Below the pieces are notes generated by a model that was given only the letters and a program-made list of their open reading frames with translations, did not search any database and was not told the origin of the DNA. 24,000 nt of DNA, taken from NCBI GenBank assembly GCA_015655975.1, contig DVEP01000035.1, forward strand, positions 45,157 through 69,156, in the 5' to 3' direction. Positions 14,842 through 19,873 of the stretch are shown here, piece after piece; position 1 is the stretch's first letter, and each line of letters begins with the position of its first letter. Both the position numbers and the translations under genes were made by a program. The stretch comes from Eubacterium sp. GTDB lineage: Bacteria > Bacillota > Clostridia > Oscillospirales > Acutalibacteraceae.

Positions 14842-14877
14842 TTTTTGCTTTATAAATTATTTTTAATATGGCATAAT
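14842..14877 (+). repeat. Decayed terminal CRISPR repeat (24/36 identity) that retains an extended -10 box
   Basis: tttttgctttataaattatttttaatatggcataat matches the repeat consensus at 24 of 36 positions. It ends exactly 30 nt, one spacer length, before the first intact repeat. It keeps TGGCATAAT at 14869-14877. Confidence 0.5.
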
Positions 14878-14907
14878 TATCCGTTTTAATTTTAATATTG
14901 TTAATAG

Positions 14908-15140
14908 ATTGTAGTTTCCTAATTATTCTTGGTATGGTATAATAGTGTAGCTATTGCTTTCGGGGTCAATAGTATTGTAGTTCCCTAATTATTCTTGGTA
15001 TGGTATAATGGAAATCGCAAAATATGCACAAGCATATTAATTGTAGTTCCCTAATTATTCTTGGTATGGTATAATTTCTTTGAACCTCATTATCAGGAAG
15101 ATACATTGTAGTTCCCTAATTATTCTTGGTATGGTATAAT
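14908..15140 (+). CRISPR. Type II-C CRISPR array: four 36-nt repeats, three spacers (30, 30 and 29 nt), crRNA sense on the plus strand
   Basis: Repeat ATTGTAGTTCCCTAATTATTCTTGGTATGGTATAAT occurs at 14908-14943 (C-to-T at 14917), 14974-15009, 15040-15075 and 15105-15140. Orientation is set by complementarity to the minus-strand tracrRNA anti-repeat. Each repeat ends in TGGTATAAT on the plus strand. Confidence 0.95.
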
Positions 15141-15198
15141 AGAAGAACGAATAATTAAGGAACAGAGCCAAATTCAAGAATTTTTAGTGAAATAAAAA

Positions 15199-15240
15199 AG
15201 AGAAAACATAGGTAATTTTCACCCATGTTTTCTCTTTTTT
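15199..15240. terminator. Bidirectional terminator shared by cas2 (minus) and the CRISPR array (plus)
   Basis: Perfect 11-bp stem: agagaaaacat (15199-15209) pairs with atgttttctct (15225-15235). An A-run lies on the left and a T-run on the right. It overlaps the cas2 stop codon. Confidence 0.75.
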
Positions 15241-15565
15241 ACAACAATGTCAGTTGTTCAAAAGACTCCGAAACATCACACTGCTTGTATTCTCCAAGCA
15301 ATATTTCTATTGACTCATATTGCTTTTCAGTAATTGTCAGCAATCTTACAGAGCCGTTTTGAGGCAAATTTTGTTTCAGTCTGTTTGTATGCGCCTTAAC
15401 AGAATCATATCCGTTGCAGACTCGAGCATATACGGAGTATTGAACCATTAGATACCCGTCTTTCAAAAGGAAGTTCCTAAACCTCGAAGCAGCTTTTTGT
15501 TCTGATTTTTCCTTTACAGGTAAATCAAAAAATACAATCATTCTCATAAACTTAGTCATAATCAA
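15239..15565 (-). CDS. cas2: CRISPR-associated endoribonuclease Cas2 (type II)
   Basis: About 100 aa. MRMIVFFDLPV...FRNFLLKDGYLMVQYSVYARV...LLTITEKQ is typical of type II Cas2. It overlaps the cas1 stop. The start is ambiguous among four in-frame ATGs at 15565, 15559, 15547 and 15541. Confidence 0.9.
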   Translation of the reverse strand: MIMTKFMRMIVFFDLPVKEKSEQKAASRFRNFLLKDGYLMVQYSVYARVCNGYDSVKAHTNRLKQNLPQNGSVRLLTITEKQYESIEILLGEYKQCDVSESFEQLTLL

Positions 15566-19400: not shown

Positions 19401-19728
19401 GTCTGTCTAAAGCCTCTGTCCTTACTTGATAAATACCACTGAGCGGAGATTCAAAAAGATTTGTCAATTCATCTTCAGTCAATATCTTTTCTTTTATAAT
19501 GAGAAATCTTATACGCTCCAATCTGTGATTGTGTCTTCTGATTCTTCTTCGATTTCCTCTTGCCTCTCTTCTCGGAAGTGCAAGGGACGAGCCGTCTTTA
19601 GGATTTTCCGCTTCGCTGAAAATCCTTGAACCGAGTTTTACAATTCTGTATGGCTGGTCGTTTAACAATTCAACAACCGAAAAACCTACAGATGCAACAC
19701 CACAGTCTAAACCAATAGCATATTTCAT
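16450..19728 (-). CDS. cas9: Cas9 endonuclease, compact type II-C-like (1092 aa)
   Basis: RuvC-I is [16 protein letters not shown] and the Arg-rich bridge helix is [24 protein letters not shown]. RuvC-II is [8 protein letters not shown], HNH is [31 protein letters not shown], and RuvC-III is LHHAVDA. The II-C-like C-terminal block is [27 protein letters not shown] SD (19741-19735) sits 6 nt before ATG 19728. The six-frame ORF start (GTG 19743) lies inside that SD. Confidence 0.95.
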   Translation of the reverse strand: [1092 protein letters not shown]

Positions 19729-19744
19729 AATAAACTCCTCCACT

Positions 19745-19838
19745 AAAAAGATAACGACCCACCGAAGTGAGTCGTTAGCGCTTTTCGGTTTTCTACCTTT
19801 TTGTAGTAACCTAATTGTTCTTGGTATGGTATAAGAAC
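19745..19838 (-). ncRNA. tracrRNA: Predicted tracrRNA (about 94 nt)
   Basis: The anti-repeat (19835-19800) is complementary to the crRNA repeat at 31 of 36 positions, with a 2-nt internal mismatch at repeat positions 9-10. It is followed by ACAAAAAGG and a 10-bp terminator stem with a UUCG loop (19776-19753), then AUCUUUUU. G19838 lies exactly 7 nt downstream of a consensus -10. Confidence 0.8.
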
Positions 19839-19844
19839 AATTAC

Positions 19845-19873
19845 ATTATAGCCGAGGAACTTGAATTTGTCAA
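19845..19873 (-). promoter_or_regulatory. Consensus sigma-A promoter of the tracrRNA (TTGACA-17-TATAAT)
   Basis: On the minus strand, TTGACA is at 19873-19868, followed by a 17-nt spacer and TATAAT at 19850-19845. Confidence 0.75.

Follow-up and report, generated by a model that had tools for sequence, protein, structure and literature searches.

The DNA considered here is a 24,000-nucleotide (nt) stretch of contig DVEP01000035.1 from Eubacterium sp., a member of the Clostridia (this whole stretch is hereafter the window), and its interval from 14842 to 19873 is occupied by a type II-C CRISPR-Cas9 locus. On the minus strand lie, in this order, a sigma-70 promoter, the gene for a trans-activating CRISPR RNA (tracrRNA), cas9, cas1 and cas2, and the CRISPR array occupies positions 14842–15140 of the plus strand. 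The interval runs from the start of a degenerate terminal repeat, where the array begins, to the upper end of the tracrRNA promoter, and every element listed in an earlier reading made from the letters of the DNA alone (the sequence-only reading) is present where that reading placed it. Outside the array, the features are these (aa, amino acids):

19845–19873, minus strand: tracrRNA promoter, TTGACA, 17 nt, TATAAT, matching the consensus at 12 of 12 positions
19745–19838, minus strand: predicted tracrRNA of ~94 nt, with anti-repeat, short GGU/ACC hairpin, and terminator hairpin followed by a U-run
16450–19728, minus strand: cas9, 1092 aa, type II-C; TIGR01865 at 821.5 bits over the whole profile
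15552–16448, minus strand: cas1, 298 aa, type II (NMENI) subtype; TIGR03639 at 294.8 bits over profile positions 1–278 of 278
15239–15559, minus strand: cas2, 106 aa from the ATG at 15559; TIGR01573 at 87.8 bits
15196–15238: terminator hairpin with a 20-pair stem and T-runs on both sides (terminator scan), conserved in the related loci of UMGS213 (L001) and of a sister strain (L014)

The three cas genes form a contiguous operon, with a single nucleotide between the cas9 stop and the cas1 start and an 8-nt overlap between cas1 and cas2. The cutoff of TIGR01865, the NCBIfam Cas9 equivalog model, is 100 bits. The PADLOC models Cas1_II (E = 7e-106) and Cas2_II (E = 2e-45) match the two smaller proteins, and the cas2 genes of relatives are likewise called at 106 aa. 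No Csn2 or Cas4 model from NCBIfam, Pfam or PADLOC matched among the neighbouring open reading frames (ORFs), and a fourth cas gene would not fit, since the gaps from cas2 to the array and from the array to the next ORF measure only 98 nt and 56 nt. The gene set is that of subtype II-C, namely cas9, cas1 and cas2 only, with csn2 (II-A) and cas4 (II-B) absent. Since both this gene set and the relatives of the Cas9 protein fit, the II-C assignment agrees with every property of the subtype that can be tested on sequence. The sequence-only reading had proposed this subtype, the arrangement of the strands and an array read opposite to the cas genes, and all three survive profile searches, a promoter and terminator scan and an analysis of covariation. 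Downstream of cas2, the hairpin at 15196–15238 would end the cas operon and would also stop transcripts that run from the last repeat toward cas2.

The ORF finder starts cas9 at a GTG, which gives 1097 aa; the ATG at 19728, which lies 8 nt after a GGAGG, gives 1092 aa, and this is the length of Cas9 in all close relatives. Pfam recognizes the domains HNH_4, RuvC_III, Cas9_RuvC and Cas9_a in the protein. The catalytic residues D8, E510 (in IELAR), H592 and N606 (in the HNH motif), and H729 and D732 (in HHAVDA) are present, D8 aligning with D8 of ThermoCas9 and H592 with its H582. The earlier claim that the RuvC and HNH catalytic motifs are intact is thus borne out by six residues located in motifs and alignments. 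Furthermore, the ratio of nonsynonymous to synonymous substitution rates (dN/dS) of cas9 is 0.11–0.13 when measured against 95%-identical alleles, which indicates purifying selection.

A search of the entire PDB placed 9AR4 first (822 bits, E = 5e-246 over residues 1–1087), followed by 21DZ/9WAD (813 bits) and 8UZA/8UZB (810 bits). Of these structures, 9AR4 is ThermoCas9 (PMC13216068), 21DZ/9WAD is AtCas9 and 8UZA is GeoCas9 (bioRxiv 10.64898/2026.01.30.702744). Lower scores were obtained with Nme1/Nme2Cas9 (~615 bits) and BlCas9 (8X5V, 588 bits), and the II-A enzymes fall far lower still (~245 bits for SaCas9, a range of ~225–247 for SaCas9 and St1Cas9, and 68 bits for SpCas9). As judged by these PDB bit scores, the Cas9 groups with the II-C enzymes, its top solved relatives all belonging to that subtype. 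The order of the best matches (ThermoCas9, AtCas9, GeoCas9, then the Neisseria enzymes) upholds the comparison drawn in the sequence-only reading with the small Cas9 size class. That reading could not say whether the ortholog had already been characterized; comparison with characterized orthologs reveals no near-identity, the nearest being ThermoCas9 at ~44%. Counted on the printed alignment, identity to ThermoCas9 is 44% over residues 1–873 and 39% in the C-terminal domain that interacts with the protospacer-adjacent motif (PAM), the PAM-interacting (PI) domain. Neither the N-terminal peptide nor the strings of repeat and tracrRNA appear in the Gasiunas 2020 supplements, and a literature search returned no occurrence of the repeat string. 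Though uncharacterized, the ortholog is an ordinary representative of its family, which is very large and well understood.

Comparison with the solved enzymes reveals both likenesses and differences. ThermoCas9 and GeoCas9, both from Geobacillus, belong to the same size class (1082–1087 aa), have the same domain order and align over the whole length. Unlike them, the window Cas9 contains a 14-residue insertion near residue 232, its host is a mesophilic gut bacterium, and its predicted tracrRNA is compact, with ~94 nt and a single 3′ hairpin. AtCas9, the type II-C enzyme of Alicyclobacillus tengchongensis, is longer (1154 aa vs 1092 aa here) and provides the best match to the PI domain (E = 1.4e-33). 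BlCas9 of Brevibacillus laterosporus, likewise a II-C enzyme from the Firmicutes and of the same length class, matches the PI domain at E = 1e-29 and is more distant from the window Cas9 than are the Geobacillus and Alicyclobacillus enzymes. The Nme1/Nme2Cas9 enzymes of Neisseria meningitidis are also less similar to it than those of Geobacillus. The N. meningitidis locus nonetheless resembles the one described here in several respects: it too contains cas9, cas1 and cas2 only, the window Cas1 fits the NMENI model, and both loci have 36-nt repeats that end in an extended −10 element, spacers of ~30 nt and an array read toward the cas genes. The tracrRNA gene lies elsewhere in the N. meningitidis locus than in the window.

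The tracrRNA gene is bounded by a promoter and a terminator that can both be recognized. The promoter at 19873–19845 is the best in 6.3 kb (promoter scan). In two strains with 95%-identical Cas9 (L001 and L005) both of its hexamers are invariant, as is the body of the RNA, and the 17-nt spacer between the hexamers and the upstream DNA have diverged. The anti-repeat lies at 19835–19801 on the minus strand, and the terminator consists of a hairpin at 19777–19752, with an 11-bp stem and a UUCG loop, followed by AUCUUUUU and ending at 19745. The consensus promoter would drive a minus-strand tracrRNA of ~94 nt, a length predicted from the promoter (with a start ~7 nt after the −10 box) and the terminator. 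The sequence-only reading had given the same 94 nt, and promoter and terminator lead to the same figure; it stands as a predicted length.

The structure of the guide RNA is supported by both folding energy and covariation. When the repeat is joined through GAAA to the tracrRNA, the construct folds at −62.9 kcal/mol against a shuffle mean of −23.7 (z = −10.6), with 30 pairs between repeat and anti-repeat and a conserved 2-nt internal loop at repeat positions 9–10. RNAalifold applied to the same construct from seven loci yields 52 pairs, nine of which show compensatory double changes (five in the repeat:anti-repeat duplex and four in the terminator stem). The z-score and the nine compensatory pairs support the earlier claim that the guide scaffold is readable from the DNA; the predicted single-guide scaffold is AUUGUAGUUCCCUAAUUAUUCUUGG-GAAA-CCAAGAACAAUUAGGUUACUACAAAAAGGUAGAAAACCGAAAAGCGCUAACGACUCACUUCGGUGGGUCGUUAUCUUUUU after the guide. 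At gathering thresholds, Rfam returned no family match anywhere in the window, the tracrRNA included. A tracrRNA element is found in the same place upstream of cas9 in nine relatives with 60–64% identical Cas9, and the entire layout of tracrRNA, cas9, cas1, cas2 and array recurs in relatives at this distance. Likewise, in the GeoCas9 locus the tracrRNA lies upstream of cas9, the array and the cas genes are transcribed in opposite directions, and the mature CRISPR RNA (crRNA) contains 23 nt of spacer as determined by RNA-seq (PMC5681539). In the mechanism that we propose for the window, the repeat part of the crRNA would pair with the anti-repeat (30 bp) and Cas9 would bind the duplex; from knowledge of the family, it would then cut guide-matched DNA next to a 3′ PAM by means of its HNH (H592/N606) and RuvC (D8/E510/H729/D732) residues.

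Two further observations concern the tracrRNA. A palindrome surrounds its start (19811–19844, minus strand), with AATTGTTCTT, a 10-nt loop and AAGAACAATT, and in the predicted fold of the free tracrRNA the 5′ end (GUUCUU) pairs with part of the anti-repeat of the same molecule; the core of the palindrome, TTGTTCTT...AAGAACA, is invariant in all relatives, so that no covariation is available. In two loci with ~60% identical Cas9 (L009 and L012), the repeat is one base off (ATTGTAGTTCCCTAATTTTTCTTGGTATGGTATAAT) and the tracrRNA is nearly identical. The guide-RNA module is far more conserved than Cas9, and guides may be interchangeable across the clade.

The junction of the tracrRNA gene with cas9 bears on how the operon is expressed. 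From the last terminator U (19745) to the cas9 ATG there are 16 nt, which contain the Shine-Dalgarno sequence, and the terminator ends 3 nt before that sequence. A scan of the minus strand from 19845 to 19728 revealed no promoter-like site before the cas9 ATG. This abutment of tracrRNA and cas9 is kept in 10 loci with 60–100% identical Cas9, some of them with weaker U-runs; two loci with 42% identical Cas9 (L002 and L003) have ~85 nt in the gap, with a TTGACA...TATAAT-like promoter. Because cas9 seems to have no promoter of its own and lies only 16 nt beyond the terminator, the simplest explanation is that cas9-cas1-cas2 is probably transcribed by read-through of the tracrRNA terminator. The promoter at 19845–19873 would then serve the RNA and the three genes alike, and it is probably the sole promoter of cas9-cas1-cas2. 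Taken by itself, the step in which cas9 is expressed through the terminator seems to us to stand at even chances. If it is true, cas9 expression would be obligatorily coupled to transcription of the tracrRNA, a mildly unusual arrangement common to the whole clade. We attach little likelihood to a further extension of this idea, namely that the tracrRNA of this clade is the 5′ leader of the cas mRNA and its terminator an attenuator that fixes the ratio of tracrRNA to Cas9, with autoregulatory feedback by Cas9. In this speculative feedback, Cas9 bound to the nascent tracrRNA leader might alter either read-through or the translation of its own mRNA. Such an autoregulatory loop, if it exists, would differ from the long-tracrRNA promoter repression known in Streptococcus pyogenes.

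The 36-nt repeat ATTGTAGTTCCCTAATTATTCTTGGTATGGTATAAT has exact copies at 14974, 15040 and 15105 and a copy with a single mismatch at 14908, and shuffled sequence yields no matches. The repeat finder also detected a degenerate copy at 14842–14877 and a related copy at ~19800–19835. The array contains four intact 36-nt repeats and one degenerate copy, separated by spacers of 29–30 nt:

14842–14877, plus strand: degenerate terminal repeat at the cas2-distal end, which keeps the 3′ TATGGCATAAT (−10-like)
14878–14907, plus strand: spacer 1, TATCCGTTTTAATTTTAATATTGTTAATAG; AT-rich, and its function as a spacer is doubtful; also in L018 and L019
14908–14943, plus strand: repeat 1, with a single substitution, C10T, at an unpaired internal-loop position
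14944–14973, plus strand: spacer 2, AGTGTAGCTATTGCTTTCGGGGTCAATAGT; no protospacer found
14974–15009, plus strand: repeat 2, consensus; ends on its 3′ side in TGGTATAAT, a perfect extended −10 element
15010–15039, plus strand: spacer 3, GGAAATCGCAAAATATGCACAAGCATATTA; also in L019 and L020; no protospacer found
15040–15075, plus strand: repeat 3, consensus
15076–15104, plus strand: spacer 4, TTCTTTGAACCTCATTATCAGGAAGATAC, nearest cas2; also in L019 and L020; no protospacer found
15105–15140, plus strand: repeat 4, consensus, cas2-proximal
15141–15195, plus strand: candidate leader, from repeat 4 to the terminator hairpin; L001 and L014 have nearly the same sequence

The count of three to four spacers in the sequence-only reading holds insofar as there are four spacer intervals, only three of which look bona fide; the remaining one (14878–14907) is very AT-rich and lies beside the degenerate repeat.

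Because the anti-repeat, the promoter and the terminator place the tracrRNA on the minus strand, the array is most simply read as transcribed on the plus strand, toward cas2, to yield plus-strand crRNAs. A perfect TGnTATAAT occupies repeat positions 28–36 and is conserved in every relative examined, whereas the middle part of the repeat differs among them. The −10-like repeat end likewise persists in degenerate distal repeats, as seen in seven loci. In the II-C systems of N. meningitidis and Campylobacter jejuni, promoters embedded in the repeats give rise to crRNAs independently of RNase III (PMC5965381), and by analogy this route probably applies here. Since each repeat ends in a perfect extended −10 box, the crRNAs would be short and probably start ~7 nt into each spacer, leaving a guide of ~23 nt, which is consistent with the 23-nt guides of GeoCas9. 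The identity of the degenerate repeat to the consensus rises from 5/12 through 9/12 to 10/12 over its successive thirds, and six related loci show the same pattern. We considered this retained promoter half as proof of repeat promoters; it is consistent with them, but we rejected it as non-discriminating, because the outer ends of terminal repeats decay generically. At the other end of the array, the bases that abut the cas2-proximal repeat form a motif, AT(A/G)GGGAAC..AAA..GGC, common to relatives with 60%-identical Cas9. The conserved flank motif on this side and the degenerate repeat on the other suggest that Cas1–Cas2 add spacers at the cas2-proximal end, probably with 15141–15195 as the leader on the side of spacer integration.

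The history of the array can be followed in related strains. A locus with identical Cas9 (L019, ENA ERZ28582011 scaffold_216) holds spacers 1 and 2, three further spacers, and then spacers 3 and 4; a second (L018, an ENA contig of 103 kb) has an array identical to that of the window from spacer 1 to spacer 4. Because L019 holds three extra internal spacers, the window array can be recognized as an internal-deletion derivative that has lost three spacer-repeat units. In the sister strain L014, whose Cas9 is 97.8% identical, the array contains 15 spacers, and that of UMGS213 contains 10–11; none of these is common to the window. Adaptation is active in the lineage, as the spacers differ wholly between strains with 95–98% identical Cas9 and the arrays reach 15 spacers. 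The small array had been taken to suggest low adaptation activity or recent acquisition, and this is contradicted by the deletion pattern in L019 and by the sister arrays of 10–15 spacers. Two Logan contigs (L015 and L021) show a single repeat and no spacers between the same flanks. This lone repeat is probably an array collapsed in k = 31 assembly and not a real empty array, for which reason array sizes from such Logan contigs are not trustworthy.

Although a protospacer search had been proposed in the sequence-only reading as the way to the PAM, searches of phage and metagenome collections found no target and hence no flanks. BLAST of concatenated spacers, 14 from the window and UMGS213 and then 18 from L019 and L014, against 50,697 phage records gave matches at chance level only, the best being 24–26 nt long with E = 0.3–0.7. 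In IMG/VR there were no exact matches to the 22-nt 3′ parts of window spacers 2–4 and of two UMGS213 spacers, and in the JGI metagenomes none to 24-nt parts of window spacers 2 and 4. Likewise, no spacer matches the window or the fetched loci outside its own array, which argues against self-targeting. One trace of a common target was seen within L014, where spacers 11 and 8 (counted in crRNA order) share an overlap of 8 nt (TCACGAAT) and the opposite strand of the joined pair reads as an open frame, YDDYGNKIRDDILNLLK; a third L014 spacer is a diverged version of this site, displaced by 1 nt. The overlap suggests repeated sampling of one phage gene. The junction 22-mer and the back-translated 13-aa pattern GNK[IV]R[DN]DILNLLK had no matches in IMG/VR. 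We rejected spacer overlap as a route to the PAM because the signal is too weak, with one 8-nt overlap among 33 spacers vs a shuffled mean of 0.28 (overlaps of at least 7 nt).

The PI domain offers another approach to the PAM. In AtCas9, position 5 of the PAM is recognized on both strands, the C of the non-target strand by Asp1089 and the G of the target strand by Lys1107, and position 8 is recognized by His1034 (bioRxiv 10.64898/2026.01.30.702744); the PAM readers of ThermoCas9 are Asp1017/Ser1019, Arg1035 and Asn961/Asn1020 (PMC13216068). The aligned positions of the window Cas9, which lie in a high-confidence gap-free stretch, are D1038, G1040, T1041, K1056 and F978. Both position-5 readers are of the same kind as in AtCas9, D1089 and K1107 corresponding to D1038 and K1056. 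D1038 is also the counterpart of ThermoCas9 D1017, and the Arg that faces G(−5) in ThermoCas9 is Lys here. Since the window Cas9 holds this AtCas9-type Asp/Lys pair, a C at PAM position 5 is predicted, that is, a PAM of N4C. AtCas9 H1034, the position 8 reader, corresponds to F978, and the ThermoCas9 A7 readers N961/N1020 are replaced by Phe/Thr, so that the PAM beyond position 5 should differ from that of ThermoCas9; the window Cas9 has neither the AtCas9 nor the ThermoCas9 readers for positions 7–8.

It is also worth considering how the same region varies among close relatives. Among 13 full-length members of the cluster at ≥90% identity (alleles >94% identical), columns 1034–1043 are a hotspot of variability, the densest outside the low-complexity linker 519–530, and column 1041 is the most variable in the protein. 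The residues that line up with the PAM readers of AtCas9 and ThermoCas9 (within 1036–1043, and 1056, also 978) are thus the polymorphic hotspot of these alleles. Three PI haplotypes can be distinguished: NSDIGTAS with K1056, which is the window type; NAGIS[IV]A[TA] with E/D1056; and [AD]ANISKGS with E1056. Because these haplotypes pair residues 1036–1043 with residue 1056, the Asp and the Lys predicted to read position 5 change together. Over residues 1030–1060 dN/dS is 0.36–0.42, from small counts, vs the much lower value for the whole gene. GeoCas9 and its ~97% identical counterpart from Geobacillus LC300 differ by a cluster of PI-domain mutations that changes the PAM, as shown experimentally (PMC5681539). 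By analogy, the PI haplotypes suggest natural PAM switching, and they would imply an ongoing arms race with phages outside the reference collections searched. Three haplotypes that use one scaffold and guide RNA could, as for GeoCas9 and LC300, provide PAM variants without protein engineering.

We consider it highly probable that the locus is an intact chromosomal type II-C CRISPR-Cas9 system providing adaptive immunity to an uncultured gut bacterium of the Clostridia, a relative of UMGS213. Several observations weigh against this reading or against individual steps of it. The tracrRNA terminator looks strong (11-bp stem, UUCG loop, 5 U), and given such a terminator it is an assumption that read-through is sufficient for cas9 expression. 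Conservation of TATAAT in the repeats could instead reflect pairing with the tracrRNA or recognition by the integrase, and generic decay at the outer end would account just as well for the degeneracy of the terminal repeat; both bear on the repeat-promoter step. For none of 35 lineage spacers was a protospacer found in INPHARED or in exact scans of IMG/VR and the JGI metagenomes. Finally, the 3′ flank implied by the L014 overlap, CTTGTTAC, puts T and not C at PAM position 5, the overlap itself being barely above chance.

Some of these observations might be accommodated if the locus were a decaying or domesticated relic, its Cas9 inactive or non-immune and its array shrinking. Indeed, the array is short and without three of the internal spacers of L019, its distal repeat is degenerate, spacer 1 is AT-rich, and no spacer matches a known phage or plasmid. 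We nonetheless find this very unlikely: the three cas ORFs are intact and of full length, the catalytic residues are present and dN/dS is ~0.12, the tracrRNA promoter is conserved with its 12/12 match, and the 10–15 unique spacers and perfect repeats of sister strains require ongoing adaptation. Somewhat less probable again is carriage by a mobile element (a prophage, plasmid or integrative and conjugative element), in which the system would serve conflict between elements. In the alignment of 10854–19971 with UMGS213, cas9-cas1-cas2 is 93.5% identical vs 85.4% for the adjacent flank, which comprises an orphan ORF, the gene for a small acid-soluble spore protein (SASP), rmlB and asnB. Upstream of the tracrRNA promoter, homology to UMGS213 extends for ~100 nt only, and the region past the array varies by strain, with an orphan ORF in some strains and a NUMOD4 gene and small ORFs in others. 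The higher identity of the cas module possibly reflects recombination or transfer between related species, or else stronger constraint. Set against carriage by such an element are the housekeeping genes that flank the locus on either side (ilvC, a two-component system, HtrA, asnB, rmlB and an ABC transporter), the lack of integrase, replication and conjugation genes in the 24 kb, and the fact that the flanks with the ABC transporter and rmlB recur on several independent contigs, 27–146 kb long.

The explanation to which we give the least credence of all is a reversed orientation, with the array on the minus strand together with the cas genes and the tracrRNA on the plus strand. Many type II-A loci do transcribe the array along with the cas genes, and an anti-repeat alone gives no strand. 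However, a plus-strand anti-repeat would have the hairpin upstream and no terminator downstream, which is the reverse of every tracrRNA known to us. The 12/12 promoter and the T-run terminator are both on the minus strand, and the repeats carry TGGTATAAT in the plus orientation only. Both AUUGUAGUUCCC, with which the repeat starts in the plus sense, and the ...UACUACAAAAAGG part of the tracrRNA match a scaffold of the Nme/Geo type. Furthermore, the layout in the window agrees with that of the GeoCas9 locus (PMC5681539).

With the locus read as an intact chromosomal II-C system, its distribution can be placed in context. The G+C content of the window is 36.9%, and ERZ27232010 and ERZ28582011 are two of the ENA assemblies in which the locus is present. 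The nearest species-representative genome is UMGS213, an uncultured Clostridiales metagenome-assembled genome with 95% identical Cas9 and the same repeat. The exact Cas9 sequence is already present in NCBI, ENA and Logan assemblies, and its cluster at 90% identity has 112 members; beyond this cluster the next relatives are only 64% identical, and 3602 proteins had E ≤ 1e-50 among the candidates scored. Biologically, there is nothing categorically new in an architecture that matches the II-C loci of Geobacillus and Neisseria and has thousands of metagenome relatives. What the locus provides is a compact, 1092-aa mesophilic Cas9 from a human-gut commensal, with a guide scaffold that can be defined from its sequence.

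Two neighbouring ORFs complete the description of the region. The orphan ORF just beyond the array (14051–14785, plus strand, 244 aa) has an N-terminus rich in Cys and a C-terminus rich in Lys; searches of Pfam, NCBIfam, PADLOC and PHROGs gave no match to it, and among 5.8 billion proteins only two clusters were homologous. We considered it as a Csn2-like or accessory gene and rejected this on these grounds, and also because it lies on the opposite strand beyond the array and is replaced in sister strains. Three of these (L014, L015 and L021) have a NUMOD4-domain gene and several tiny ORFs in its place, and the site is thus a variable islet beside the array. Farther out, the ORF at 13580–13780 (minus strand, 66 aa) corresponds to a gene that carries the Pfam SASP domain in sister contigs, and this counterpart implies that the host is a spore-former.

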